A stretch of 64,000 nt of DNA from Gemmatimonadales bacterium (GCA_039794085.1 JBDIWC010000001.1:1-64000), one strand, 5' to 3'; shown: positions 1-23,717, counted from the first letter of the stretch. Notes: generated from the sequence alone by a model not told the origin. Numbers and translations: made by a program.

Positions 1-180
1 TCTCTTCCCTCACTCCTCGAACGAAGGCACGAACCTCTCTCTCACTCCTCACTTCTCTTCCCTCACTCCTCGAACGAAGGCACGAACCTCTCTCTCACTC
101 CTCACTTCTCTTCCCTCACTCCTCGAACGAAGGCACGAACCTCTCTCTCACTCCTCACTTCTCTTCCCTCACTCCTCGAA
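1..180. repeat. 53-bp perfect tandem repeat, 3 full copies plus a 21-bp partial; may continue beyond the window edge
   Basis: Unit TCTCTTCCCTCACTCCTCGAACGAAGGCACGAACCTCTCTCTCACTCCTCACT at 1-53, 54-106 and 107-159, partial at 160-180. No spacers. Confidence 0.95.
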
Positions 181-2844
181 TGGCCCCTCCTCTTCCCGCG
201 CGCGAATCACGGAGTCGAGCAGGGGTACCACCAGGGCGGTCCATCCCGTCTGGTGACTCGCCCCCAGTCCCTGCCCCGTCTCCGCGTGGAAGTACTCATG
301 AAACAGGGCCAGGTCCCGGAAGGCGGGATCGGTGGCATACCGGGCATCGCCGCCATGGCAGGGCCGGTGGCCCTCGGGATCGGCGCACACGAGCCGAGCC
401 AGACGCCGGCTCAACTCCCGGGATACCTCCTGCAGGGTGACCCGGCGTCCGGAGCCCGTGGGGCACTCGACTGTGAACGAGTCGCCGAAGAATCGGTGGT
501 ACCGTTCCAGAGCCTCGATGAGGAGGAAGTTGAGCGGAAACCAGACCGGCCCCCTCCAGTTCGAATTGCCTCCGAAGATACCCAGGGTCGACTCCCCGGG
601 TAGATACTCGACCCGATGCACCTCGCCTTCGACGTGCAACTCATACGGATGGGCCTCGTGGTATCGCGAGAGGGAACGGATTCCGAAGGGCGAGAGGAAC
701 TCGGATTCATCGAGAAGGTAGCCCAGCACCCGGGTGAGACGCTCGGGAGTGGGAAGCGCCAGGAGCCGCATACCGCATTTCGCCGGATCCGGGGCACAGA
801 GAGACACGTGCTCGGCGAGGTCCGGACGGTACGCCAGGAACCACTCCATGCGCCGACGGAAGTCGGGAAGCGCGTCCAGCACCTCCTGGTCGAGAATCTC
901 GCAGGCGATAAGTGGAATCAGTCCCACCAGCGAGCGGATGCGCAGAGCGGTCGTCTGGTCGTCCACGTGGAGCTGGTCGTAGTAGAACCCGTCTCCCTCA
1001 TCCCACAGTCCATGCCCACCCACTCGATTCATCGCCTCGGCGATCGCGATGAAGTGCTCGAAGAACTTGGTGGCCATGTCCTCGTAGGCGGGATCCTCCC
1101 GGGCGAGTTCCAACGCCATGCTGAGCATCGTCGCGCAGTAGAACGCCATCCACGCCGTCCCATCCGCCTGCTCGAGATGCCCCCCCGTGGGGAGGGCGCG
1201 GCTGCGATCGAACACTCCGATATTGTCGAGCCCCAGGAAGCCCCCGCTGAACAGGTGGTTCCCCTCATGATCCTTGCGGTTGACCCACCAGGTGAAGTTG
1301 AGGAGCAGCTTCTGGAAGGCACGGGCGAGAAAGACGTGATCCCGCTTGCCCCGTGCGCCGGTCATCTTGTACACCCGCCAGCAGGCCCAGGCATGGACCG
1401 GGGGGTTCACATCGCCGAGGGCAAACTCGTAGGCGGGAATCTGCCCGTTGGGGTGCATATACCATTCGCGGAGGAGGAGCAGCAACTGTCCCTTGGCAAA
1501 CTCCGGGTCGAGCCGCGCGAAGGGCACCGTGTGAAAGGCGAGGTCCCAGGCGGCATACCAGGGGAATTCCCACCCGTCGGGCATCGAGATGATGTCACGG
1601 TTATTGAGGTGCCGCCAGTCATGGTTCCGGCCCGTGCGCCTCGTCTCGGGGGGAGGTGGTTGTGCCGGGTCCCCCGCCAGCCACTGGGGCACGTCGTAGT
1701 AGTAGAACTTCCGGGTCCAGAGGAGCCCGGCGCGGGCCTGGCGCATCACACGGGCCTCGTCGGGCGTGGTTCCGCCGGGCAGAAGCGAGGCGTGAAACCG
1801 GTCCGCTTCCCGCGCCCGCTGGCGCATCACCTGCGCAAATCCCTTCCAAGGCCGCTCCGGGGACGCGAGAACCGCCTCGGCGCAGAGCCGGAGTTCCACC
1901 ACGCCCGACTCCCCCGCCTCCAGATCGAGCCGGTAGACCCAGGCCGCCTTGGTCCCGGTTTCCTCCGGGTTCACGGCGGAGGTGTCACCTTCCACGAGGA
2001 ACCGGTGGAAGGCATCCTTGACCCAGGGGGTGCGGTTCGGGACGCCGAAGCACCGGTCGGTATTGGTCTCGTTGTCGGTGAAGAGGGCCGTCGGAGTTCC
2101 GGCTGTCCCGGAGCGAGCGAGCCAGAGGTAACGCCCGAGCGTGGAGTGGTCCGCCCGGATCCGGTCGGGTCCGGTTCGGCGCAGTGTGGGACGGGGCGGG
2201 AACCCCTCGCCCGTGCGTCCCCACGACCAGGTGTTGCGGAACCAGAGGGTCGGGGCCACGGTACAGGGGGCCCGGCGATCGCCCCGGTTCGTGACCGTCA
2301 CCCGCATGAGCAGATCCTCCGGATTCCCCTTGGCGTAGTCCACCCGCACGTCGAAGTACCATCCCCCCTCGAAGACACCGGTGTCGGTAACTTCATACTC
2401 GGGATCCTCGCGCCTGCGCCGGGCATTCTCCGCCACCAGGTCCGCGTAGGGAAACGCCGCCTGGGGATACTTGTAGAGGGCGGAGAGCCAGGAGCCGGTG
2501 GGCGTTCCATCGAGGTGGTAGTACAACTCCTTCACATCCTCACCATGATTTCCCTCCGGCCCGGTCAGGCCGAAAAATCGCTCCTTCAGGATCGGATCGT
2601 GCCCGTTCCAGAGCGCCAGGGCCAGAGCCATGCGACACTGCTGGTCGCAGACACCGAGGAGTCCGTCCTCCCCCCAGCGGTACGCCCGGCTCCGGGCCTG
2701 GTCATGGGGAAAGGCGCCCCACACCGTGCCCTCGGCGGAGTAGTCCTCCCGCACGGTACTCCATTGCCGGTCGGCGAGATAGGGACCCCAGAGGCGCCAG
2801 GGCTCGGCGGAGGCGAGACGGTGATGTTCAGCGGTTCGGCTCAT
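169..2844 (-). CDS. MGH1-like / GH63 glycoside hydrolase (glucosidase), about 891 aa
   Basis: Motifs WGPYLADRQWSTVREDYS, GNHGEDVKE, WEFPWYAAWDLAFH, GNSNWRGPVW, FHEYFH..G.GLGASHQTGWT. Start taken at MSRTAEH (ATG 2844). Confidence 0.9.
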   Translation of the reverse strand: MSRTAEHHRLASAEPWRLWGPYLADRQWSTVREDYSAEGTVWGAFPHDQARSRAYRWGEDGLLGVCDQQCRMALALALWNGHDPILKERFFGLTGPEGNHGEDVKELYYHLDGTPTGSWLSALYKYPQAAFPYADLVAENARRRREDPEYEVTDTGVFEGGWYFDVRVDYAKGNPEDLLMRVTVTNRGDRRAPCTVAPTLWFRNTWSWGRTGEGFPPRPTLRRTGPDRIRADHSTLGRYLWLARSGTAGTPTALFTDNETNTDRCFGVPNRTPWVKDAFHRFLVEGDTSAVNPEETGTKAAWVYRLDLEAGESGVVELRLCAEAVLASPERPWKGFAQVMRQRAREADRFHASLLPGGTTPDEARVMRQARAGLLWTRKFYYYDVPQWLAGDPAQPPPPETRRTGRNHDWRHLNNRDIISMPDGWEFPWYAAWDLAFHTVPFARLDPEFAKGQLLLLLREWYMHPNGQIPAYEFALGDVNPPVHAWACWRVYKMTGARGKRDHVFLARAFQKLLLNFTWWVNRKDHEGNHLFSGGFLGLDNIGVFDRSRALPTGGHLEQADGTAWMAFYCATMLSMALELAREDPAYEDMATKFFEHFIAIAEAMNRVGGHGLWDEGDGFYYDQLHVDDQTTALRIRSLVGLIPLIACEILDQEVLDALPDFRRRMEWFLAYRPDLAEHVSLCAPDPAKCGMRLLALPTPERLTRVLGYLLDESEFLSPFGIRSLSRYHEAHPYELHVEGEVHRVEYLPGESTLGIFGGNSNWRGPVWFPLNFLLIEALERYHRFFGDSFTVECPTGSGRRVTLQEVSRELSRRLARLVCADPEGHRPCHGGDARYATDPAFRDLALFHEYFHAETGQGLGASHQTGWTALVVPLLDSVIRAREEEGPFEE

Positions 2845-3017: not shown

Positions 3018-3281
3018 GTGCCGGAACCGCTCGCCGAGGCCGTCATCCGCGCTGCCGCAATCTACCTCGGAGCGGGGCTCGTCTTTGCCATCCCCTTCGC
3101 GTGGCGCTGGGCGGGGCGTCTCGATCCGGTGGCCCGGGAGGGAACCGGGGGCTTCCGGATCCTGCTGGTCCCTGGGGGAGTCCTCCTGTGGCCCTGGCTG
3201 GCGGTGCGGCTGCTCCAGCCGGGGCCACACCCTCCGGAGGAACGGAATGCGCATCGCCGCATGCGGGACGGCGTCCGGTGA
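3018..3281 (+). CDS. small membrane protein, 87 aa, first gene of operon
   Basis: GTG start after GGGGAG. Two hydrophobic segments (YLGAGLVFAIPF; FRILLVPGGVLLWPWL). GTGA overlap with the next gene. Confidence 0.75.
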   Translation: MPEPLAEAVIRAAAIYLGAGLVFAIPFAWRWAGRLDPVAREGTGGFRILLVPGGVLLWPWLAVRLLQPGPHPPEERNAHRRMRDGVR

Positions 3282-3505
3282 TACGCTCCCTGCGGACTGC
3301 GCACCGGTGGGTCATGCCTCTGATCGCCCTCCTCGTGGCCGCCGTTCTGGTCGCTGCCCTTGCCCGGCCGCGCGGCCCGGTGATCGTGTCGACCCCGCCT
3401 CTGGATCAGGCGCCGGCCGTCGCAGAGCATGATCATGAGGTTGCGCCTGCGGGACTCGACTCGAGCACGGATTCAGAGGATTCCCTCGTGCCGGTGTCCC
3501 GATGA
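3278..3505 (+). CDS. small membrane-anchored protein, 75 aa
   Basis: MIRSLRTAHR followed by a hydrophobic helix. Overlaps both neighbours by 4 nt. Confidence 0.65.
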   Translation: MIRSLRTAHRWVMPLIALLVAAVLVAALARPRGPVIVSTPPLDQAPAVAEHDHEVAPAGLDSSTDSEDSLVPVSR

Positions 3506-4539
3506 GCGTTCGCTATCAGGCGGTCGGGTGGAACCCCCAGAAGCGTAAGATCGATCTCGTCGCCGCGACCAGCGTTGGTCTCTTCCTGGTGGTCTTCGGG
3601 GCCGTGACCCGGTGGCGGTCTCCGGCCATGAGCCTGGAGATCGTGCTCATCCGTGGACTCGCCACGGCGGCGTATCTTCTTCTGCACGTCATTCTCCTGA
3701 TCGGTCCCTTGACCCGGCTCGACCGTCGCTTCCTTCCGCTGCTCTACAACCGCCGCCATCTCGGCGTGATGGCCTTCGTGCTGGGGCTCAGTCACGCCAT
3801 CCTGGCCACGCTGCAGTATCATGCCGGCGGCAATGCACCGTTACTGGTCAGCCTCCTGAGCGCCAACCGGTCGCTGGGCACTCTCTCGAGCTTTCCATTC
3901 GAGCTGCTGGGCATCGCGGCTCTCGGGATCCTCGCCCTTCTGGCCGTCACCAGCCACGATTTCTGGCTTTCCATTCTGAGTCCCCCCGTCTGGAAACGGC
4001 TCCACATGCTGGTCTACCTCGCCTGGGGGCTCCTGGTGGCCCATGTGGCGCTCGGGACTCTCCAGGCGGAAGGGGATCCCCTCCTCGCCCTCGGGGTGGT
4101 GGCCGGGGCCGCCTCGGTGATCGGGGCTCACCTGGTGGCGGGGTGGAGGGAACGCCGGGGCGACCAGATGCTGCCGGCGGATGACGACGGGTGGGTGGAT
4201 GCCGGGCCCGCCGGGACGATACCGGAATCCCGGGCCCGCGTGGTGATGGTGGCAGGTGAACGCGTCGCCATCTTCCGGCATCAGAACCGATTGAGTGGGG
4301 TTTCCAACGTTTGTCGGCACCAGAACGGGCCTCTCGGCGAGGGGCGGATCATCGATGGGTGCATCACCTGCCCCTGGCACGGGTATCAATACTATCCCGA
4401 TTCCGGGAGTTCACCACCTCCTTTCACCGACACCATTCCCACCTTCTCGTTGCGCATCCGGGACGGGAGGGTGGAGGTTCATTCGCGCCCGCACCCACCC
4501 GGTACCCGAATCGACCCGGTCCCGCTTCATGACACCTGA
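3502..4539 (+). CDS. ferric reductase-like (MsrQ/YedZ-type) transmembrane domain fused to a C-terminal Rieske [2Fe-2S] domain
   Basis: RRHLG, WKRLHMLVY and further His in TM helices. Rieske motifs CRHQNGPL and CPWHG. Confidence 0.88.
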   Translation: MSVRYQAVGWNPQKRKIDLVAATSVGLFLVVFGAVTRWRSPAMSLEIVLIRGLATAAYLLLHVILLIGPLTRLDRRFLPLLYNRRHLGVMAFVLGLSHAILATLQYHAGGNAPLLVSLLSANRSLGTLSSFPFELLGIAALGILALLAVTSHDFWLSILSPPVWKRLHMLVYLAWGLLVAHVALGTLQAEGDPLLALGVVAGAASVIGAHLVAGWRERRGDQMLPADDDGWVDAGPAGTIPESRARVVMVAGERVAIFRHQNRLSGVSNVCRHQNGPLGEGRIIDGCITCPWHGYQYYPDSGSSPPPFTDTIPTFSLRIRDGRVEVHSRPHPPGTRIDPVPLHDT

Positions 4540-5305
4540 TTCCCCTCCCCCCATGGCTCCCGACGATTTCTTCGTCGGACACCACCCCAGAGCCCCGGAC
4601 AGTCTGCGCCGATGGCTCCGGCGGCTCACCGCACTCCTTCTCACCGGAGTGATCGTCACGGCGTGGGCCGTGGCCAGGAGCCAGTCCCGCCAGCCCGATA
4701 CGGTGTACGCCGACGGGGAGCCGGAGGCGTGGGATGGTCGACTCCGGGAACATCCCTACCCGATGCTGGTGACAGAGAGCCCGGGGGGCGCCGTGTCACA
4801 CGTTCACCTCTCCGCTCCGGGAAAGTTCGGGGCCCAAGACCTGGCCCGAAGCCGGGATGGCAAATACGTGTCGCTCCGGGGAGTGCGGATCGCCCGGGGA
4901 AACCAAACCATGGCCGAACTCGTTCCAGGGTCGATCGTTTCCGGCTCCGCGCCCCTCAGCGCCGACCGTCCGGTCCCGGCGGTGGAGAAGTTGGGCCGCC
5001 GGACTCTCACCGGAGAGGTTGTGGACTCGAAGTGCTTCCTCGGCGCCATGAATCCGGGTATTTTGCAGACCCACCGGGGTTGCGCCATTCGATGCCTGAA
5101 TGGCGGCATCCTCCCCCTGTTCGTGGTACGAGGTCCTGGAGAGTCAGAATGGGAACTGATTCTGCTGGACCCGGACGGCGCCCCGGTGACAGCCGACATC
5201 TTCGCGCTGGCGGGCCTCCAGGTGCGCCTGACGGGTCAGGTGCAGCGGGAAGACGACCTGTTCTTCTTCAAGGTGGATCCTACGACCTACGAGATCGCCC
5301 GGTGA
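4529..5305 (+). CDS. membrane-anchored hypothetical protein with a Cys/His motif
   Basis: One N-terminal TM helix. Motif GEVVDSKC...HRGCAIRCLNGG.P. Overlaps the upstream gene by 11 nt. Confidence 0.8.
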   Translation: MTPDSPPPMAPDDFFVGHHPRAPDSLRRWLRRLTALLLTGVIVTAWAVARSQSRQPDTVYADGEPEAWDGRLREHPYPMLVTESPGGAVSHVHLSAPGKFGAQDLARSRDGKYVSLRGVRIARGNQTMAELVPGSIVSGSAPLSADRPVPAVEKLGRRTLTGEVVDSKCFLGAMNPGILQTHRGCAIRCLNGGILPLFVVRGPGESEWELILLDPDGAPVTADIFALAGLQVRLTGQVQREDDLFFFKVDPTTYEIAR

Positions 5306-6123
5306 CCGGCGCCCCCGACCCGCGGCGCCCCACCCCGATTCCCCCGGGTACGCTCGACTACCCCGGGAGCCCGGAGTCCCTGCCCACCGAGGAGATTGCC
5401 GCCGGCCGGTATCTCCTCCGGTTTGCGCGCACCGCCGCGGAGCTGGACCGCCTCCTGCGGCTCCGTTTCGAGGTGTTCAACCTCGAGCTCGGCGAAGGGC
5501 TCGACAGCGCCTATGCCACCGGGCGGGACGAGGATGAACTCGACATCCATTTTCATCACCTGATGATCGAGAGCCGGGAGACGGGGGAGGTGGTCGGGAC
5601 CTACCGGATGCAGACGGTGGAAATGGCGGAACGGCTGGGCGGGTTTTACTCCGCCGGAGAATTCGACCTCTCCGGAATTCCCGCCGAGGCCATGGCGCAG
5701 TCGGTCGAGATCGGCCGGGCCTGCGTGGCCAGGCCGCATCGGAATGGGAGAGTTCTCCATCTCCTCTGGCGCGGGTTGGCCACGTACCTCTCCTGGAACC
5801 GGAAGAGCCATCTGTTCGGGTGTTGTTCCCTCACCAGCCAGGATCCCGCAGTGGGGGAATCGGCGTACCGGTTTCTGCAGGGCAAGGGGCTGGAGCACGA
5901 CCGCATTCGCACCACCCCCTTGCCGGGCCTTGGTTGTGAGGTCGCCGAGGGGACCCCACTCCCCGAGCCTCACATTCCGGCTCTGTTTCAGTCCTATCTC
6001 TCCCTGGGCGCCAAGATTTGCGGTCCTCCCGCCATCGACCGCCTCTTCAAGACGATTGATTTCCTGGTGGTCCTGAACGCGGACGAGTTGGACCCGCGCG
6101 TATTCCGGACCTTCTTCCGATGA
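5302..6123 (+). CDS. GNAT-fold N-acyltransferase, OlsB / ornithine-acyl-ACP transferase-like
   Basis: RLRFEVFNLELGEG, D.DELD, VVGTYR, GFYSAGEF, EIGRACV..HRNG, YL.LGAKICGPPAID..F.TIDF. Confidence 0.85.
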   Translation: MTGAPDPRRPTPIPPGTLDYPGSPESLPTEEIAAGRYLLRFARTAAELDRLLRLRFEVFNLELGEGLDSAYATGRDEDELDIHFHHLMIESRETGEVVGTYRMQTVEMAERLGGFYSAGEFDLSGIPAEAMAQSVEIGRACVARPHRNGRVLHLLWRGLATYLSWNRKSHLFGCCSLTSQDPAVGESAYRFLQGKGLEHDRIRTTPLPGLGCEVAEGTPLPEPHIPALFQSYLSLGAKICGPPAIDRLFKTIDFLVVLNADELDPRVFRTFFR

Positions 6124-6986
6124 CGGCGCGGACCGGTTGGGTGACGGAATCCGAGGAATTCCACGGTGGGGACGCCGTGCGGGCCTCGGCGCGGTCGGCT
6201 AACCGGTCCCTGAGCTGCCAGCTCCGACTCCTGGGACGGAGCATGGGGATCGTGGCTTGGACCGCAGGGCTTTTCGTGATCGGGACGGTGGGGCTGCTCC
6301 CCTTGCTCTGGTCGGCGCGACGGAGCCTCGGCTGGCGCACCTGGTTCGTCCACCTCTGGGCGCGGGGAATGTGCGCGCTGCTCGGCATCGAACGCCGGGT
6401 GGAGGGTCCGGCCCCCCGACCACCCTTCTTTCTGGTCAGCAACCATCTCTCCTACGTCGACATTCTGGTCCTCGCCGCTTCGGTTCGCGGGGTGTTCGTG
6501 TCCAAGAGCGAGGTGCGGCGCTGGCCCGCGATCGGCACCATGGCCACCATCTTCGGCACCATCTACCTGGACCGGACCCGGACGCGGGATGCGGTGAGGG
6601 TGCTGGAGACGTTCGACCGCGTCGTGGGCGCCGGAACGGGGGTGGTGGTCTTTCCCGAAGGAACGAGCACGGCGGGAGACCGGGTCGGCCCGTTTCACGC
6701 CGCGCTCCTCGAATGGGCGGCTCGTCGTGACTTTCCGGTTCACACCGTGGCCCTCCGCTACGAGACAGCACCGCCCGATCCCCCGGCGCACGAGGCCATC
6801 TGCTGGTGGGGCGACATGACCTTCCTCCCTCATCTGGCCCGGTTGTGCACCCTGCGCCGGAGCCGGGCCACGGTCCGGTTTGCCCCCGAAGCGATCCGCC
6901 GGCCGGATCGCCGGGCCCTGGCGGACGAAGCGCGCTCGGCGGTGCTCGCCCGCTTCCGCCCGGTCGTAACTCCGGAGCTGCTGTGA
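6120..6986 (+). CDS. lysophospholipid acyltransferase (PlsC/OlsA family)
   Basis: NHLSYVD (HX4D) and FPEGT motifs. Start may instead be 6243. Confidence 0.88.
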   Translation: MTARTGWVTESEEFHGGDAVRASARSANRSLSCQLRLLGRSMGIVAWTAGLFVIGTVGLLPLLWSARRSLGWRTWFVHLWARGMCALLGIERRVEGPAPRPPFFLVSNHLSYVDILVLAASVRGVFVSKSEVRRWPAIGTMATIFGTIYLDRTRTRDAVRVLETFDRVVGAGTGVVVFPEGTSTAGDRVGPFHAALLEWAARRDFPVHTVALRYETAPPDPPAHEAICWWGDMTFLPHLARLCTLRRSRATVRFAPEAIRRPDRRALADEARSAVLARFRPVVTPELL

Positions 6987-7498
6987 CGGATCGGTCCTGG
7001 CCCGCGCTCGATGGCAACCTGTGTTTCTTGCGTCAGGGAATCTCCCTGCTCGATCAGCTCGGCGATGCCACGTACGCCTCCGCGGTGGGCCGCCACTCTC
7101 CGGTCGGCGCCCAGTACCGCCATGTGCTGGAGCACTATCAGTGCCTTCTCACGGGGCTCGACGACGGGTGTGTCGATTATGATGCCCGGGCGCGGGATCC
7201 CCTGATCGAGCGGGACCGGGGCCATGCCCTGCGGACCACCCGCGATTTGCTGCAGGCGATCGCCTCGCTGCCCCCGGACCCGGACCTCTCCCTCGAGGTG
7301 CGGATGGACTGCGGAGGGGGCGGGGCCTGTCCCGAATGGTCTCGCTCCTCGCTCGGCCGGGAACTGCAGTTCCTCGCGAGTCACACGGTGCATCACTACG
7401 CCCTCATCGCCCTCCTGCTCGAGGCGCAGGGCGAGGAAGTCCCCGCCGATCTCGGAGTGGCCCCCTCGACGCTGGCCCACCAGCGCGCCGGGCGGTGA
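6983..7498 (+). CDS. DinB-family protein
   Basis: GAQYRHVLEHY, DYDAR.RD, RELQFLASHTVHHYALI (His triad). GTGA overlap. Confidence 0.8.
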   Translation: MTDRSWPALDGNLCFLRQGISLLDQLGDATYASAVGRHSPVGAQYRHVLEHYQCLLTGLDDGCVDYDARARDPLIERDRGHALRTTRDLLQAIASLPPDPDLSLEVRMDCGGGGACPEWSRSSLGRELQFLASHTVHHYALIALLLEAQGEEVPADLGVAPSTLAHQRAGR

Positions 7499-8220
7499 TG
7501 TGCACGCTGAGCTGGGTCCGCCTCTCGCCCGCACAATACACCGCCTTCTTCAACCGCGACGAGCAGCGTTCCCGGTCCCCCGGCCATCCCCCTCGCCTCG
7601 GGGTCACCCGCGGAATCCCGTGGATCGCACCCATCGATGGCGAGGCGGGAGGAACCTGGATCGGCGTGAACGGCCACGGCGTCACGCTGGCGCTGCTCAA
7701 CCGATATGCGGATGCTCCTCATGAGATCCCGGGTTCTCCGGTCAGCCGGGGGTTGCTGGTGCGCGATCTGCTCGACACCCCCAACCCCGAGACTCTGGAC
7801 CGTCGCCTCGCCGCGGCATCCCTCCAATCCTATCTCCCATTCACCCTCGTTCTGTTGGCCCCGGAGCACCCGGCGCGCGTCCACGAGTGGGATGGCACCA
7901 CCCTCGTCACCAACGCCGTGCCCGGGAGTGGACTGCTGCGCACCAGTTCCGGCGCGGACCAGACGGGGGCGGAGCAGAACCGGCACCGCCTCTTCGAGGC
8001 TCTTTCTCCCACTCCGGACACTCTGGCGGAGGTGCACCGCAGCCACGATCCGTCCCCCGGCGCCCTCTCGGTGTGCATGCATCGGTCCGACGCGATGACG
8101 GTCAGCTTCGCCCGAGTGGATGTCACCCCGGGTGAGGTGGTCATGCGGTACGCCCCCGGTCCCCCCTGTACCACCCCGGTGACGGAAGGACTCACCCTCG
8201 CCCGGCTGCCCGCAACATGA
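7498..8220 (+). CDS. NRDE / TANGO2-family Ntn-hydrolase-fold protein
   Basis: N-terminal MCT, NRDE motif, GGTWIGVN, SRGLLV, PFTL. TGATG overlap. Confidence 0.9.
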   Translation: MCTLSWVRLSPAQYTAFFNRDEQRSRSPGHPPRLGVTRGIPWIAPIDGEAGGTWIGVNGHGVTLALLNRYADAPHEIPGSPVSRGLLVRDLLDTPNPETLDRRLAAASLQSYLPFTLVLLAPEHPARVHEWDGTTLVTNAVPGSGLLRTSSGADQTGAEQNRHRLFEALSPTPDTLAEVHRSHDPSPGALSVCMHRSDAMTVSFARVDVTPGEVVMRYAPGPPCTTPVTEGLTLARLPAT

Positions 8221-10838
8221 CCGAGGCTCTCGACCCGAACGACCGCTCCCCCCGGCGTCTCTCACCGTGGATGGTCCTCGCAGCCCTCTATCTGCTCGTG
8301 CTCGGCGCTTCCCACGTGGCACGGCGGCTCGACCCGTGGGAGCCCCTACCCGCCCCGGATGAGCGCTCCATTTCCCTCCGGACCGTGTCGGGAGACCGGG
8401 AGCGGACCGGGAGCACCATCCGTTTCGTGTGGCGCGAGTCGGGAAACCCCGAGGGTCCGGTCGTCATCCTCCTCCACGGGAGTCCCGGCAGCAACAACGA
8501 GGTCAAGGATCTGGGTGCCTACCTGGAACCCCGCTACCGGGTGATCTCCCCCGACCTCCCGGGGTTCGGCGCCTCATCCCACCGCATTCCCGATTACTCC
8601 TTCCGGGCCCACGCCCGGTATCTGCTCCAGCTCCTCGACTCCCTGCGGATCCCCGACGCCCACTGGGTCGGCTTCAGCATGGGAGGAGGGGTCATCCTGA
8701 GTGCGGCGGATCTGGCCCCGGATCGCATCCGGTCGTTGGTCCTGCTCTCGGCCCTCGGTACCCAGGAGTTCGAGCTGCTGGGCGACTACTGGCTGAACCA
8801 CGCCATCCATGGGTTGCAGTTGGCCGGCCTCTGGCTCCTCCGCGAGGCGGTGCCGCACTTCGGAGCGTGGGATCCCTCCTTTCTCGGGGTGGCCTACGCC
8901 CGCAACTTCTACGACTCCGACCAGCGCCCCCTCCGCCGCATCCTGCAGGAGTACCAGGGCCCCGCCTTCATCATCCAGGGAAAGCGAGACGACCTGGTGC
9001 CGAAGGAGGCGGCCCTCGAGAGTCACCGGCTGTTGCCCCAGAGCGAACTGCTCATGCTCGAGGGCAATCACTTCATGACCTTCCAGCGTCCCGGGGATCT
9101 GGCTCCGCCTCTCCTCTCCTTCCTCGCGCGGGTCGATGGCGGCGTTGCACCCACCCGGGCCTCCGCCCCGGCGGAACGGGTCGCGGCAGCGAACGCCCCC
9201 TTCACCCGCGCGATGATTCCGCGGGCAACCGGTCTCGCCCTGAGCGTTCTTCTCCTGCTCCTGGCCGCCGCCACCCTGGTGAGCGAGGATCTGACCTGCA
9301 TTGGCGCCGGCCTCCTGGTGGCACGGGGCACCGTGGCCTTCCTTCCCGCCACGATCGCGTGCATCATCGGCATCGTCGTGGGAGACCTCCTCCTCTTCGC
9401 GGCGGGTCGCTTCCTCGGGCGGCCGGCCCTCCCCCATCCCCCGCTCTCCTGGATCGTGAAGCCGGCGGATGTGCGCCGCGCCTCCGAGTGGTTCGCCCGC
9501 CGGGGGCCCTGGCTCGTCCTCGCCACCCGCTTTCTTCCGGGTACCCGGCTCCCCACCTATGTGGCGGCAGGCATCCTGCGGACCCGAGCCCTGACCTTTG
9601 CCGGGGTCTTCCTCCTGGCGGCCGTTCTCTGGACCCCGGCGCTGGTCGGGCTCGCCGCCGTGTTCGGAAACCAGGTCGGTCACCTGCTCCAGACCTATCG
9701 CACGTTTGCAGGAGAGGCCCTCCTGATCCTCGGGGTGGTTCTCTTCGCCCTCCTCCGGATCGGCATCCCGCTCTGTTCGTTCCGGGGCCGGCGCCTGCTC
9801 CTCTCCCGCTGGTACCGGATCACCCGCTGGGAATTCTGGCCCCGCACTGTTCTCTACGCCCCCATCGCATTCTACATTCTCTGGCTGGCCCTGCGGCACC
9901 GCGGGTTGCTGCTCCTCACCGCCGTGAACCCCGGAATGCCGGGGGGCGGTTTCGTGGGAGAGCGGAAGCATGAGATCCTCCAGCGGCTGGCCGGAGCGGG
10001 AGACGCGGTTCCCCCCTGGTGCCTGTTGCCCCGGGACCCGGCGGCGGCACTCGACGCGATCCGCGCCTTTCAGGCCGAGCACCAGCTCGCATTCCCCCTG
10101 GTGCTCAAGCCGAACATTGGCGAACGGGGTGCCGGGGTCCAGATCATCCACTCCCCGGCCGAGGCCGAGGAGTATCTGAAGGAAGCCAACGGAGAGGTCC
10201 TGGCCCAGGCCTTCGTCGAGGGAATCGAGTTCGGCGTGTTCTGGTATCGCTACCCCCACGAGGCGGAGGGACGGATCTTCAGCATCACCGAGAAGCACTT
10301 CCCCGCCGTGACCGGCGATGGAACCCGCACCCTCGAGGCGCTGATTCTCAACGATCCCCGCGCGGTGATGATGGCTCCCACCTATCTGGCGCGCCACGCA
10401 GCACAACTGGATACAATCCCCGCCGCGGGAGCCGTCGTCCCCCTGGTCGAGATCGGGACCCATTCCCGGGGGGCCGTGTTCCGCGATGGTACCGCCCTGC
10501 GGACCCGGGAACTGGAGGCGGAGATCAATCGGCTGAGCCGCACCTTCGACGGTTTCTACTTCGGGCGCTTCGACCTTCGGGTCCCCTCGGTCGAGGATTT
10601 CCAGGCGGGACGGAACCTCCGGATCATCGAGCTCAACGGGGCCACCGCCGAGGCGACCAGCATCTACGATCCGGCCCATCGGGTCTGGACCGCCTGGAGG
10701 ACCCTCGCCACCCAGTGGCGCATCCTGTTCGAGATCGCTGCGGCCAACCGGGCGGCGGGAACGGCCCCGGCCACGGCCCGGGAGATGAGAGAGCTCTTCC
10801 GCGCCCATCGCGAGGCCCAACGGGGGCACGTCACTTGA
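8217..10838 (+). CDS. triple fusion: alpha/beta hydrolase + DedA/VTT membrane domain + ATP-grasp domain
   Basis: Hydrolase: HGSPG, DLPGFG, GFSMGG nucleophile elbow. DedA: SEDLTCIGAG, GDLLLF..GR, RFLPGTR. ATP-grasp: FPLVLKPNIGERGAGV, FGRFDLR, IIELNG. Confidence 0.85.
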   Translation: MTEALDPNDRSPRRLSPWMVLAALYLLVLGASHVARRLDPWEPLPAPDERSISLRTVSGDRERTGSTIRFVWRESGNPEGPVVILLHGSPGSNNEVKDLGAYLEPRYRVISPDLPGFGASSHRIPDYSFRAHARYLLQLLDSLRIPDAHWVGFSMGGGVILSAADLAPDRIRSLVLLSALGTQEFELLGDYWLNHAIHGLQLAGLWLLREAVPHFGAWDPSFLGVAYARNFYDSDQRPLRRILQEYQGPAFIIQGKRDDLVPKEAALESHRLLPQSELLMLEGNHFMTFQRPGDLAPPLLSFLARVDGGVAPTRASAPAERVAAANAPFTRAMIPRATGLALSVLLLLLAAATLVSEDLTCIGAGLLVARGTVAFLPATIACIIGIVVGDLLLFAAGRFLGRPALPHPPLSWIVKPADVRRASEWFARRGPWLVLATRFLPGTRLPTYVAAGILRTRALTFAGVFLLAAVLWTPALVGLAAVFGNQVGHLLQTYRTFAGEALLILGVVLFALLRIGIPLCSFRGRRLLLSRWYRITRWEFWPRTVLYAPIAFYILWLALRHRGLLLLTAVNPGMPGGGFVGERKHEILQRLAGAGDAVPPWCLLPRDPAAALDAIRAFQAEHQLAFPLVLKPNIGERGAGVQIIHSPAEAEEYLKEANGEVLAQAFVEGIEFGVFWYRYPHEAEGRIFSITEKHFPAVTGDGTRTLEALILNDPRAVMMAPTYLARHAAQLDTIPAAGAVVPLVEIGTHSRGAVFRDGTALRTRELEAEINRLSRTFDGFYFGRFDLRVPSVEDFQAGRNLRIIELNGATAEATSIYDPAHRVWTAWRTLATQWRILFEIAAANRAAGTAPATAREMRELFRAHREAQRGHVT

Positions 10839-10869
10839 AGTTCGAAGTGGGAAGTGGGAAGTTTGAAGG
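10835..10869 (+). repeat. heptamer array (NNGAAGT)x5 starting at the stop codon
   Basis: TTGAAGT TCGAAGT GGGAAGT GGGAAGT TTGAAGG. Confidence 0.85.
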
Positions 10870-11063: not shown

Positions 11064-12176
11064 ATGAGCTGGCACGATCTTGGCGCGGTCAACGAACTCG
11101 CCACCACTCCGCTCCGGAAGGTCCTGGTGGGCCGGACCCGGCTCGCCATCACCCACCACGCGGGTGAGTTCGGCGTCCTGTCCGGCGTCTGCAATCACGT
11201 CGGGGGCCCCCTCGGCGACGGACGCCTCGACGGGGAATACGTGGTGTGTCCCTGGCATCACTGGAAGTACCACTGCCGCACCGGACTGGGGGAACCGGGA
11301 TTCGAAGCCGACGCCGTCCCGAGCTACACGACCCGGATCGACGGTGGTCACCTCTGGGTCGATCTCGCCTCCGCCACTCCCCGGAGCAAGGCCCCGCACG
11401 CCCCACACCCCCTGGCCCGTCCGGTGGTTCGCGCCGACGGTCCGATCCGGGTGGCGGGCATCTCGACCACGGGGCTCGACCCGGCGTGGCCCCGGGTGTC
11501 GACCTCCGAGTTCCTCCTGGAGCACGCCCTGGCCCACGCTCAATCCGCCCTGGGGGTGGAGAGCTCGCTCCTCCGGCTCTCGGAATTGAAGTTCAGACAC
11601 TGTGAGGGATACTACTCCACCTCCGCGCGGGCCTGCACCTGGCCCTGTTCGATCACCCAGATGGACCCCAGCGACCAGATGGACCAGGTCTACGAGGCGG
11701 TGGTCCACTGGGCAGATGTGGTTCTCGTCGCCACCCCCATTCGCTGGGGAGCGCCGAGTTCCCTCTACTTCCGGATGGCCGAGCGGATGAACTGCATCCA
11801 GAACCAGATCACCCTGCGGGACAAGGTCCTGATCCAGCGCAAGGCGGCGGGGTTCATCATCACCGGGGGCCAGGACAACGTGCAGGGGGTGGCGGGTCAG
11901 ATGATGACCTTCTTCGGCGAACTCGGCTTTCACCTGCCCCAGTTTCCATTCATCGCGCATTCACGGGGATGGACGGCGGAGGACATGGAACGGAACGTGA
12001 CCCAGGTGCGGGAAAGCCGGGACCTGCGGCGGGGCGCCGAAGAGCTGGCGGAGCGGGCGGTGACCCTGGCGGCGACCCTTCTGGAGCATGGAGACGCCGA
12101 TCATGTGTGCCGCGGGGGACGGAAGGCGCAGCGGCTGGACACGGAAAGTTTGAGAAGTTCGAAGTTCGAAGTTTGA
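11064..12176 (+). CDS. Rieske [2Fe-2S] domain fused to an NAD(P)H-dependent FMN reductase / iron-sulfur flavoprotein-like domain
   Basis: CNHVGGPL...CPWH. Flavodoxin-like part with CEGYYS...ACTWPC, ADVVLVATPIRWG, GFIITGGQD. Confidence 0.85.
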   Translation: MSWHDLGAVNELATTPLRKVLVGRTRLAITHHAGEFGVLSGVCNHVGGPLGDGRLDGEYVVCPWHHWKYHCRTGLGEPGFEADAVPSYTTRIDGGHLWVDLASATPRSKAPHAPHPLARPVVRADGPIRVAGISTTGLDPAWPRVSTSEFLLEHALAHAQSALGVESSLLRLSELKFRHCEGYYSTSARACTWPCSITQMDPSDQMDQVYEAVVHWADVVLVATPIRWGAPSSLYFRMAERMNCIQNQITLRDKVLIQRKAAGFIITGGQDNVQGVAGQMMTFFGELGFHLPQFPFIAHSRGWTAEDMERNVTQVRESRDLRRGAEELAERAVTLAATLLEHGDADHVCRGGRKAQRLDTESLRSSKFEV

Positions 12177-12216: not shown

Positions 12217-13590
12217 CTACGGCTTCCAAACGAGCTGCCCGTCGATGTCCTCCGGCATCGGCTCGCCCAGCCACTCCAGCATCGCGGGGAAGAGGTCCAC
12301 CGATCGCATCGTGGCCTCCGGCAGTGGCCGGTTGGCCCAGATCGGGATCTGCATGTGGGAGCGCAGGAAGCTCCCGTGTCCTGCCCGATGCTCCGGCACT
12401 TCGAACCGCCGCCGGAAGTCATGCCCCTCGGCCGCGGCCAGCACCACATCCCCGGTGCGCGGGGAGTCGAAGAGCGACAGCAGCTGGACCGCGGCATCGG
12501 GATAGGGACCGTCCCACGTGGTGGCGAGCCATTCCGCCACCGAGGCCTCCCGGGCCTCCCCCACCTGCAGCGGATCGCCGGTGAGGGGCTCATAGTGGAC
12601 GGTCCCGTTCCGGCGGAAGAGCCGCGCCTCCTCCCGTCCGTCATCTCCCCCCACGATTCGTAGCGCCCCGGGGGTGTCGTCGGGGCCCGCCAGGAAGGCC
12701 ACGCTCGGCTCCGCGGCGAGGGCCCCCACCAGATCGTCCGCATGTCCGAACATGGCGCGGATCCGCAGAGCCGACAGCGGAAACCTCCCGGGTCGCGTTT
12801 CATTGGGCCGGGCATAGAGCATGGCCGAGGCGTTCCCCGCCACCGTCACCGCCACGGCGGGGCTCCGTTCCCACAACACCGGATGGGCGAGGGCGCGAAC
12901 GCCGCGATCACGGAACCAGCAGGCCAGATCCATGTGGGTGTGCATCGGTGCCGCCCCATGATCGCTCACCAGGAGCACCAGGGTCTCCTCCAGCGTCCCG
13001 GACGCCGCCATGCGATCCACGACCGACCCGATCACGCGATCCACCCCGGCAAGGGCCGCCCGGACCCGCGGATGGTCCGGGCCGCACTGGTGAGTGTAGC
13101 CGTCCACCGCGGGAAACTGGGCAAAGAGGAACCGCCAGGGCCGGTCCACCAGATCCAGCAGGTGTCGGCCCACCACGTCATCGGAGGGCTGATGCCATTG
13201 GAGATAGTGCCCCATGGCGCCCCAGAACTTGCGGCTCCGCCGGGAGGGATCGCGCTCGGGGCTCAGCCCCCGCGCGATCGGCGTGAACAACCCGTAGCTC
13301 TCCGGCACCAGCTGGAAGAGGGTGCGTACCTCCGGCGTGATGTCCCCATCCAGGAGCCCGGCCTGCACCCCGCAGTAACTCCGCACCGCGTGCCGGTCCC
13401 GCCACCAGCGGCCGGCGTAGTGGGACCGGTCCATCCACCGGATCGACGGAATGTTGGCTCGGCCCGGGAGACACCCGGTCAGAAAGGGGAGATAGGCCAC
13501 GCTGGTGGTGGACGGGAACGCCGTGATTCCCCGCCGGCGCGTGTCGATAGAGGTGAGACGAGCCAGATGAGGCAGGTGCCCTTCGGTCAG
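12217..13590 (-). CDS. alkaline phosphatase superfamily protein (nucleotide pyrophosphatase/phosphodiesterase-like)
   Basis: LLVDGLRPD, FPSTT (Thr nucleophile), DGYTH, SDHG, GHGS. GTG start after AAGGA. Confidence 0.85.
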   Translation of the reverse strand: MTEGHLPHLARLTSIDTRRRGITAFPSTTSVAYLPFLTGCLPGRANIPSIRWMDRSHYAGRWWRDRHAVRSYCGVQAGLLDGDITPEVRTLFQLVPESYGLFTPIARGLSPERDPSRRSRKFWGAMGHYLQWHQPSDDVVGRHLLDLVDRPWRFLFAQFPAVDGYTHQCGPDHPRVRAALAGVDRVIGSVVDRMAASGTLEETLVLLVSDHGAAPMHTHMDLACWFRDRGVRALAHPVLWERSPAVAVTVAGNASAMLYARPNETRPGRFPLSALRIRAMFGHADDLVGALAAEPSVAFLAGPDDTPGALRIVGGDDGREEARLFRRNGTVHYEPLTGDPLQVGEAREASVAEWLATTWDGPYPDAAVQLLSLFDSPRTGDVVLAAAEGHDFRRRFEVPEHRAGHGSFLRSHMQIPIWANRPLPEATMRSVDLFPAMLEWLGEPMPEDIDGQLVWKP

Positions 13591-13740
13591 CCACTGCTCG
13601 GCGAGGTCGGGACGCAGTCCATCCACCAGAAGGAGCAAGACGCGACGCACGAATGTCCTTCGCCACGGAGTGAGGGGGGACAGGACCGGCAGTCGGGAAA
13701 GGTAAGCCACCCCGCGGACAAATCCCACCCGTCCCGGGCC

Positions 13741-14028
13741 GTGACCAGGTGTTGTCAGGACGCCCGCTCCCGCGGCAAGCCGGTGATCATCCCGGAGAGC
13801 GTCCCGATCCAGACCTTCGACATGCAGGATCCCCAGACCCGGAGCACCTGGTTTGCCCCCTACTTTTCCCTGATCAATGCCGACATAAAGGGGTTCTGCC
13901 ACTCGAACCGGAACTATACGACGATTCCCGTCTGGCAGGACTGGGGCGACCTCCGGATCGAGCAGTCGGTGCTGGCGCCGATGTGGGCGGCGGAGCTGGC
14001 CCGTCCGCAGTACCGGCATCTCCAGTGA
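13741..14028 (+). pseudogene. probable C-terminal remnant of a GH26-like glycoside hydrolase
   Basis: KPVIIPES, WFAPYFSLI, IKGF, WQDWGDLRI resemble the C-terminal barrel of GH26 enzymes. No N-terminal half is present. Confidence 0.45.
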
Positions 14029-20433: not shown

Positions 20434-22745
<2,312 letters not shown>

Positions 22746-22749
<4 letters not shown>

Positions 22750-23717
22750 GCGAAGTGGTCGAATCCGCGTTCGGGCAGCGCCGTGTCGCCGGTGACACGC
22801 ACCCGGCCCTGCTCGGTGGTCGCGACACCGATGCGGGTGAGGGTGACCCCGGTATCCGCCAGGCATCGGGTGGCCCGGTCCTCTTCCCCTCCCGCCGGGA
22901 GAGTCACCAGAAGCTCATAGTCCTCGCCCCCCGTCAGGGCCATCTGGATCGGGGAGATACCCAGCCGACGAGCCACGGGAGCCACTCCGGGATGCACCGG
23001 CACGGCGTCGGGGTCGAGGATAATTCCAACGCCAGAGGCCGCGGCGAGGTGCCCGAGGTCCCCCAGAGTTCCGTCGCTGACGTCGATCATCGCGGTGGCG
23101 CCGTGGGCCGCGAGCCAGCGACCGGCGGCGAGCCGGGGTGTCGGCGCGGCGAAGGCGGGGCGTACATCGGGCGCGGGATCGATCCCGGCCAGGAAGGACA
23201 CCAGGGCGGCCCGAGCTCCCCCCAGGGAACCCGTCACCCACACCTCCTCCCCCGGGGAGGCTCCCGAGCGGAGAACGGGCCGCTCCGCCCATCCCAACAC
23301 CGTCACCGAGACAACCCACTCACTCCCCCGGGTGAGATCCCCTCCCAGAACCGCCGTCTTCACATCCTCCACCGCCTGGCCGACCCCGGACATCAGGAGC
23401 ACGGCCGACTCCGGAGTGGCCTCCCGGGGGACCACCAGCGCGACCACCACCCCGGCCGGCGCGGCTCCCATCGCGGCGAGATCACTCAGGGCCGCAGCCG
23501 TGGCGCGATATCCCGCCTCCTCCAGAGAGATCCACCCGGTCCGCCAGTGTACCCCTTCGACCGACGCGTCGGTGCTGACCAGGAGTTGCCCCGGTCCGGG
23601 GGGAACCACGGCGCTGTCGTCCCCGAGGGAACGGGCGCGGGATCCGAGCCGCCCGATGATCCGCCGGATGAGATCGAACTCGGCGCCCGGACCGAAGGCG
23701 AGGTGGGAGTCGGTCAT
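22746..23717 (-). CDS. thiL: thiamine-phosphate kinase
   Basis: EFDLI, GDDSA, LSDLAAMGA.P, GGDL, IDVSDG, GGEDYELL. Confidence 0.95.

Follow-up and report, generated by a model that had tools for sequence, protein, structure and literature searches.

A run of nine genes near the start of a 64,000-nt stretch of a Gemmatimonadales genome (GCA_039794085.1 JBDIWC010000001.1:1-64000; hereafter the window) raises the question whether these genes, named g1 to g9 (Table 1), work together and, if so, on what product. A first-pass annotation of the sequence had proposed that all nine belong to one system that makes, modifies, and flips an aminolipid or lipopeptide. We found that the nine-gene operon is real and conserved, and it is conservation, not the count of overlapping junctions, that makes the case for it strong. 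As to its product, we lean, without great confidence, towards an ornithine-type lipid whose free carboxyl receives an extension before the lipid is flipped and trimmed on the outside, with g1-g4 keeping the head group in its reduced state.

Presence of the genes is nested in three tiers

Three phylum sets were searched, i.e. the phylum of the source genome (201 genomes), Acidobacteriota (241), and the phylum of genome G229 (113), 555 genomes in total; the centre genome of each set is included in the counts and is bound to be positive. The ATP-grasp domain of g9 is present in 53 of the 55 genomes that have g4. In the source's own phylum each of the two occurs in 22 genomes and both in 21; in Acidobacteriota the 22 genomes with g4 all lie within the 32 with the ATP-grasp; in the third phylum each occurs in 11 and both in 10. 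Were the two independent, the shared genomes expected would number 2.4, 2.9, and 1.1, respectively. OlsB/OlsF-like acyltransferases, searched for in the first two phyla, were found in 30 and 52 genomes, covering all 23 own-phylum genomes with either g4 or the ATP-grasp and 31 of the 32 Acidobacteriota with the ATP-grasp, i.e. 53 of 54 ATP-grasp genomes. Among 61 relatives, g4 and the ATP-grasp occur in the identical 11. Presence is nested in three tiers, g4 inside the ATP-grasp and the ATP-grasp inside the N-acyltransferase. Our reading is that such nesting reflects a pathway in which late steps depend on what the early ones make; kinship among the genomes inflates it.

A second set was anchored on the best 80 of 595 g4 matches in GTDB. 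The ATP-grasp was found in 76 of these genomes: within 10 kb of g4 in 35, and elsewhere in the genome in 41 of the other 45 (4 in one search, and 37 of 41 in another). The near-complete genomes G091 and G151 carry the two halves, g1-g4 and g5-g9, on different contigs, and Engelhardtia mirabilis Pla133 likewise has both halves without linkage between them. That the halves co-occur in other genomes, as the first-pass annotation had supposed, is thus confirmed in both sets, far over base rates. Labels among these best 80 include Gemmatimonadota, Acidobacteriota, Verrucomicrobiota, Planctomycetota, and Myxococcota, as well as Rhodothermia, Calditrichia, KSB1, Eisenbacteria, and Leptonemataceae.

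Gene content was counted in the 37 g4 loci that are well flanked (at least 8 kb on both sides). All 37 contain g3 and 36 contain g1, followed by g7 and the ATP-grasp (20 each), DedA (19), g8 (18), g5 (15), and g6 (5; 18 of the full 80). In the 17 of 80 ATP-grasp-anchored metagenome loci that span at least 12 kb, the counts are DedA 16, g8 11, g7 10, g4 9, g5 8, and g6 4. The idea that the nine genes travel as one set did not survive: the gene order of the window (g2 ignored) was found again in 8 of 90 loci, g6 is seldom near g4, and each half also occurs alone.

Gene packing in the window

All nine open reading frames (ORFs) are intact, in frame and with zero internal stops (third-position GC, 0.74-0.85), and the first-pass gene order and domain calls hold, including the Pfam calls for g3 and g5-g9. 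Successive genes overlap by 4, 4, 11, 4, 4, 4, 1, and 4 nt. Of the eight overlaps originally claimed, seven stand; the 11-nt overlap of g3 and g4 requires that g4 start at ATG 4529, whereas a start at ATG 4553, favoured by the family consensus start, a 250-amino acid (aa) database entry, and a crude gene caller, leaves a 13-nt gap. The g1/g2 overlap requires the GTG at 3278, which is backed by g2 homologues that begin M-I-R-x-L-R; the crude gene caller picked ATG 3314. As assessed by crude gene calls, 887 of 2682 co-directional neighbours in the source genome (33%) overlap, with longest runs of 7. The operon's run of 7-8 lies at the upper end of this range, yet is poor evidence alone, and the overlap count was dropped as proof of translational coupling since overlaps are common across this genome. 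No promoter or terminator signal exceeded shuffled sequence.

Some flanking features were recorded. The MGH1-like glucosidase family, one member of which is divergent from g1, is represented no more than 10 kb from g4 in 13 of 80 loci, where a glycogen-debranching gene often accompanies it. When up to 2 mismatches are allowed, a 19-nt motif between g9 and g10 occurs 64 times, on 40 contigs (counted without shuffle control), and resembles a dispersed repeat family.

Table 1. The operon, the parts of g9, and other features of the window
Feature	Coordinates	Strand	Description
g1	3018..3281	+	87 aa, two predicted membrane helices, no Pfam family
g2	3278..3505	+	75 aa, one membrane helix
g3	3502..4539	+	MsrQ/YedZ-type heme membrane domain and C-terminal Rieske [2Fe-2S] ferredoxin
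g4	4529..5305	+	N-terminal membrane anchor and two OB-type barrels; alternative start ATG 4553
g5	5302..6123	+	OlsB-like amino-acid N-acyltransferase (GNAT, PF13444)
g6	6120..6986	+	OlsA/PlsC-like O-acyltransferase (PF01553)
g7	6983..7498	+	DinB-family protein (DinB_2)
g8	7498..8220	+	divergent TANGO2/NRDE Ntn-fold protein
g9	8217..10838	+	873 aa: membrane anchor, alpha/beta hydrolase, DedA/VTT, ATP-grasp
g9, hydrolase	residues S154, D258, H285
g9, DedA/VTT	residues about 337-520
g9, ATP-grasp	residues 530-873		CphA/GshF-type
g10	11064..12176	+	Rieske and NADPH-dependent FMN reductase; putative accessory
MGH1-like glucosidase	169..2844	-	divergent from g1
19-nt motif	10838..10856	+	intergenic, between g9 and g10
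19-nt motif, inverted copy	11042	-	intergenic, between g9 and g10
Type I phosphodiesterase / nucleotide pyrophosphatase	12217..13779	-	convergent on g10
PlsC-type acyltransferase	21994..22914	-	further copy in the window

The acyltransferases g5 and g6

In the operon a PF13444 N-acyltransferase adjoins a PlsC-type acyltransferase with an HxxxxD motif, the arrangement of an OlsB/OlsA pair. This motif, which we take to be that of PlsC-type acyltransferases, is kept in g6 as H109-x4-D114, and g5 is the sole match of its profile in the source genome. Both proteins score below the curated thresholds (g5 against OlsB, 114.8 bits with a cut-off of 350; g6 against OlsA, 123.5 bits with a cut-off of 300), and because they fall so far below, the amino acid used by g5 may be one other than ornithine. 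From their sequences, g5 and g6 are likely to build an ornithine-type amino-acid lipid. The form of the N-acyltransferase varies, from OlsB plus PlsC in the window to a fused OlsF-type protein in Vibrio aquimaris and Photobacterium.

The three-domain protein g9

Pfam identifies in g9 an Abhydrolase, a VTT (59.1 bits, cut-off 33.9), and a weak RimK-like ATP-grasp match; Mur-ligase and glutamate-cysteine ligase domains are absent from the same scan. The fold predicted for the ATP-grasp part is confident (predicted local distance difference test (pLDDT) 94.9), and K631, D786, E805, and N807, presumably the ATP-binding Lys and the metal-binding Asp and Glu-x-Asn, are invariant in 37 of 37 sequences. 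Its closest relatives, by profile (E 6e-10 to 3e-7) and by fold, are CphA2, CphA1, and GshF; the curated cyanophycin synthetase threshold is not reached (31 bits, cut-off 850). Ligases of the CphA/GshF type join an amino acid to the terminal carboxyl of a peptide. Sequence and predicted structure thus place the g9 domain nearest to this peptide-extending kind. The first-pass suggestion that the lipid is extended with a second residue fits such an assignment.

The ATP-grasp comes in several forms, which among 90 loci are the triple fusion (18), a DedA-ATP-grasp fusion (18), and the domain alone (9), and the hydrolase recurs, fused or free-standing, adjoining g4 or the ATP-grasp. The anchor helix follows basic residues in 17 of the 20 hydrolases and, in line with the positive-inside pattern, in 63 of the 71 g4 proteins with a clear anchor, which is why the soluble domains of both are predicted to be periplasmic. 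The ATP-grasp is predicted to be cytoplasmic. By our own count of membrane crossings, an outside hydrolase and an inside ligase are compatible with the DedA topology in 10.1101/2020.12.18.423352. The DedA part has the re-entrant motifs of VTT proteins, with E-D, G-D, and R-x-x-P-G conserved. Its best named match is the lipid flippase UptA, whose equivalog cut-off it does not reach.

The redox tier g1-g4

The g3 protein has six membrane helices and Pfam matches to Ferric_reduct and Rieske, the latter part resembling dioxygenase ferredoxins. In 54 sequences, R84, R85, H86, H98, H107, H152, H168, and H181 are invariant, as are C271, H273, C290, and H293 of the Rieske domain, which is predicted to be cytoplasmic. 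The membrane part displays the MsrQ/YedZ signature, with R84 in place of the first His of the third helix and the three His H98, H168, and H181, all placed by spacing against PMC3591440, and is predicted to need heme; its score against curated MsrQ (28.8 bits) does not reach the cut-off of 130. Since the source genome has separate PF00174 (MsrP) genes (contigs C5 and C12, not at the operon), with an MsrQ-like gene adjoining MsrP, g3 is not the housekeeping MsrQ.

For g4, a model with an anchor and two OB barrels was obtained (pLDDT 91.7). D166, K168, C169, H182, C185, and C189 are invariant, and the Cys3-His set is predicted from sequence to be a periplasmic metal or thiol site. Fold comparisons returned only generic OB matches (Foldseek TM about 0.2; best Z 7.8), which do not indicate a function. 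DUF5818 matches are weak and found in 9 of 67 members (best E 2e-4), and none of 23 pattern matches in viral contigs proved to be a g4 relative. Natural fusions of g3 and g4 into one ORF occur at 7 loci and in 6 of the best 150 library matches, three of which hold the whole g3 part; in one fusion cluster, 7 members drawn from three sources are full-length. At E values no worse than 1e-30, 1,354 clusters represent the predicted conduit, i.e. MsrQ-Rieske with Cys3-His OB.

The two small proteins are less distinctive. g1 conserves W58, P59, E75, and H79, and we infer that it is a subunit of the redox tier. The g2 family (F0) is found in 57 of 90 loci; most members have a further domain of ~110 aa, g2 being a short form, and 12 sampled members range from 35 to 181 aa, mostly near 160. 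The DM13-like look of the long forms was not borne out by Pfam, which gave no match in 8 proteins. Profile comparison shows g2 and g4 to be unrelated. A possible cytoplasmic electron donor to g3 is g10, found in 5 of 80 g4 loci and directly 3' of g4 in 4 of these.

Two further observations concern this tier. At six loci (L032, L039, L045, L058, L092, and L094), a Rieske domain fused to an FMN glutamate-synthase-like domain lies near g1, a further candidate donor, and in G399 an IS21-type element separates g1 from g3 and g4 is split into two pieces (L206:9865-13498).

Alternatively, the cell might release the product as a small molecule, such as a surfactant, signal, or metal chelator of the N-acyl dipeptide type, with the lipid as no more than its carrier, the periplasmic hydrolase freeing the cargo, and g3-g4 reducing a bound metal. 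We consider this improbable. A single-chain product is possible, g6 being so often missing, the hydrolase would face the right side, and g3 belongs to the ferric-reductase domain superfamily and has a partner with a Cys3-His site. Neither TonB receptors nor metal ABC transporters, however, were seen among the recurrent neighbours that could be named, with one cluster of ABC ATPases (11 of 90 loci) set aside, and the sole constant transporter is the DedA domain, nearest by name to a lipid flippase.

g7 and g8

The DinB_2 threshold is passed narrowly by g7 (25 bits, cut-off 24.8), whose His triad (H47, H134, and H138) is present in 44 of 44 sequences; no relatives were found in the PDB. g8 is a TANGO2 protein by Pfam (42.4 bits, cut-off 22.6), in a match that spans profile positions 19-126 of 257; against the human TANGO2 chain the E value is 0.47. 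Its C2 and N-R-D-E motif (N19, R20, D21, and E22) are kept in 39 of 39 sequences, and most members carry an additional Cys/His cluster (H180, H183, C193, H195, and C224). TANGO2 matches in the 201 own-phylum genomes fall into 15 weak ones (E 1e-6 to 5e-15), all in genomes that have the system, and stronger ones in 13 other genomes (11 at E 1e-65 or better) that lack it. By these matches, g8 is a divergent TANGO2 subfamily, distinct from the canonical TANGO2/HtpA orthologue. In G019 (L020:10815-12361), g7, g8, and the hydrolase are frameshifted, by assembly error or decay.

HtpA is a heme-binding protein that assists in the synthesis of cytochrome c (PMC10470608), and g3 is predicted to need heme. 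Were g8 a heme chaperone of this kind, g7-g9 might mature g3 and the link to lipids would be incidental. This is very improbable: g8 retains the Cys2/Asn/Asp set proposed to be catalytic for TANGO2 (PMC13044924), it is found without g3 in Vibrio, Photobacterium, and G187, the heme role is itself disputed (PMC12782551), and neither the ATP-grasp nor the OlsB link would be explained.

Neighbouring genes and variant cassettes

Recurrent partners in the 80 g4 loci are SDR (24), DoxX (21), YHS (21), ECF sigma (19), MsrAB (7), and DUF1223 (7), with SDR immediately 5' of g1 in 14 loci. The recurrence of DoxX, YHS, SDR, and ECF sigma, like the probable location of g4 and the hydrolase in the periplasm, goes beyond the first-pass annotation. 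Of the well-flanked loci, 15 of the 20 that include the ATP-grasp have thiol-redox markers, against 5 of the 17 that lack it, as counted with no genome-wide background. DoxX and YHS are not obligatory, since the source genome has no YHS match and only weak DoxX matches away from the operon. In Vibrio aquimaris and Photobacterium, the cassette reads DedA, ATP-grasp, DinB, NRDE, (YHS), DoxX, and OlsF-type. This gammaproteobacterial form is seen at L197:8301-14023 and L202:7243-13103 (with YHS in L202); g4 is absent from those replicons, and its tier, g1-g4, may be replaced there by DoxX and YHS. On Rhizobium plasmids, the order SDR-g1-g2-g3-g4 lies amid sigma/NrsF, the chlorite dismutase family, YHS, DsbD, DUF1223, GST, and peroxiredoxin genes. 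In G471, an NrsF-like gene and an ECF sigma gene flank g1.

A divergent ATP-grasp subfamily in Komagataeibacter and Variovorax (L194:7079-10011 and L198:6930-10788) adjoins a heme-oxygenase-like iron redox enzyme and a methyltransferase. The Komagataeibacter relatives were considered as cerilipin synthase and not accepted, remaining a weak lead: they belong to this divergent plasmid subfamily, with 34-36% identity and without W12 and H220 of the domain. OlsB is present in Variovorax, and the subfamily may belong to a separate pathway. Near g1-g4 at six loci (L036, L042, L052, L062, L063, and L092) lies a block of GMC oxidoreductase, aquaporin, glyoxalase-like, and gluconolactonase genes.

A proposed pathway and the evidence that weighs on it

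In the reading that we favour, g5 would N-acylate an amino acid from acyl-acyl carrier protein and g6 would add the second chain. The cytoplasmic ATP-grasp would phosphorylate the head-group carboxylate and form an amide with a second amino acid or amine, in the manner of its nearest solved relatives, which act on peptide C termini. The DedA domain would flip the product outward, where the membrane-anchored Ser-Asp-His hydrolase could serve as a periplasmic deacylase or transacylase on the flipped lipid. In the weakest steps, g8 would cut the amide for lipid recycling, g7 would be a metal-dependent helper or thiol transferase, and electrons from a cytoplasmic donor (g10 or SDR) would enter the Rieske domain, cross the membrane by way of the MsrQ-type heme, and reach g4 at its Cys3-His site.

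In the accessible text of a 2026 review (PMC12971839), taurine transfer to ornithine lipid is ATP-dependent with its gene unidentified, and glycine lipid is the precursor of flavolipin, the serine-adding enzyme not being named there. OlsI is an alpha/beta hydrolase that serves as an aminolipid O-acyltransferase (PMC12493201), and MsrQ hands electrons to a periplasmic partner (PMC5676040). The accessible part of PMC12186959 does not name the genes beside the second OlsF of V. cholerae and is neutral for the proposal.

Several findings weigh against this pathway. The scores of g5 and g6 are far under the curated OlsB and OlsA cut-offs, and g6 is near g4 in 5 of 37 well-flanked loci. Related genomes are not independent, which overstates the Fisher values for co-occurrence. 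The tiers have exceptions: g4 is absent from 12 of 65 ATP-grasp genomes, making the redox tier dispensable; in the single-contig genome G187, where g5-g9 are present, neither g3 nor g4 was matched (one search lacked a positive control); the ATP-grasp was unmatched in 4 of 41 tested g4 genomes, which are incomplete assemblies; G447 has the ATP-grasp and no OlsB/F match; and a Salinivibrio cassette has no OlsB/F-type gene within 19 kb. Five Rhizobium replicons carry g3-g4 with no ATP-grasp match in a search confined to plasmids, and the two Rhizobium plasmid loci that were read hold g1-g4 without g5-g9. Tree distances correlate within halves (rho 0.41-0.51) and poorly across them (g4-ATP-grasp 0.19, g4-g5 -0.05, g4-g7 0.08, and g3-ATP-grasp 0.34). 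Finally, the Atlas clusters nearest to g4 are mostly from Pseudomonadota, a phylum outside the genome sets.

Such findings bear on the view that the operon joins two envelope-stress modules that act independently and have only a regulon or island in common, with g5-g9 tailoring an aminolipid and g1-g4 repairing oxidised periplasmic proteins as MsrPQ does, or scavenging hypochlorite, without touching the lipid. The oxidative-stress islands of the Rhizobium plasmids, the NrsF-like and sigma genes around g1 in G471, the control of a hypochlorite response by SigF/NrsF (PMC4436054), the weak agreement of trees across modules, and G187 with g5-g9 alone all speak for it. We nonetheless think it unlikely, because g4 without the ATP-grasp is very rare even where the two are unlinked, thiol-redox neighbours track the ATP-grasp half, and the 45 commonest neighbour clusters include, as far as they could be named, no MsrP-type gene.

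A narrower form of the favoured pathway, whose share of our confidence is contained in that of the whole, is that the added residue bears sulfur (cysteine, methionine, or a relative) and that the product is a membrane-anchored periplasmic redox buffer. We regard this as a tentative, minority option, suggested by finding a GshF-like ligase and DinB together with a Cys amidase, neighbours of the thiol-redox kind, and a supply of reductant dedicated to the system. The ligase would build on the aminolipid and DedA would flip it; hypochlorite would oxidise the lipid or DinB would conjugate electrophiles to it; the Ntn amidase and the hydrolase would clear it, and the Rieske-heme-Cys3His conduit would re-reduce it. 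If true, roughly one genome in ten, across three phyla with few cultured members, would have a lipid that parallels glutathione or mycothiol.

More generally, the ATP-grasp family is a direct candidate for aminolipid head-group extension, a reaction class without known genes according to the accessible text of PMC12971839. The nesting yields a testable claim, namely that a conduit of a new type depends on a lipid product. It also places an Ntn-fold protein of the TANGO2 clan in a pathway with acyl-amide substrates, g8 being too distant to bear directly on human TANGO2.

Comparison with known systems

Like OlsB/OlsA, the operon has a GNAT N-acyltransferase followed by a PlsC-type O-acyltransferase, and OlsF-type fusions replace this pair in the gammaproteobacterial loci. 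MprF/LpiA with AcvB combines a synthase-flippase with an outside hydrolase, and mycothiol S-transferase with Mca combines a DinB-type transferase with an amidase; both are analogous to parts of the operon. The ATP-grasp shares a G-D-G insertion with the CphA1 G domain, CphA2, and GshF/GshAB, at about 20% identity and TM-scores of 0.37-0.55. Unlike theirs, its N-terminal part consists of helices with a W-E-F-W-P motif, and it is usually fused to or beside DedA.

The g3 protein shares with MsrPQ (YedYZ) the YedZ signature, an Arg for the first heme His plus three His (PMC3591440), whereas it differs in its added Rieske domain, its invariant H86, H107, and H152, and its partner, a Cys3-His OB protein instead of a molybdoenzyme. 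The g8 protein shares the Pfam match, Cys2, and NRDE with TANGO2/HtpA, as a divergent subfamily, and unlike g8 the HtpA gene adjoins a metal transporter (PMC10470608).

Known tailoring of ornithine lipids by OlsC, OlsD, OlsE, and OlsG comprises hydroxylation, methylation, and taurine transfer, and the accessible text of PMC12971839 names no ATP-grasp, DedA, DinB, Ntn, or redox conduit in it. We found no published description of the tailoring or redox tiers in literature drawn mostly from outside subscription journals and excluding supplements, in keeping with the first-pass statement that no characterised pathway has the complete set. Cerilipin (tauro-ornithine) and flavolipin (serine-glycine) share with the proposed step the formation of an amide at the free carboxyl of an aminolipid (PMC12971839). 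Taken together, the OlsBA-like core is known, and the operon is a real, conserved, and undescribed variant of aminolipid synthesis and tailoring.

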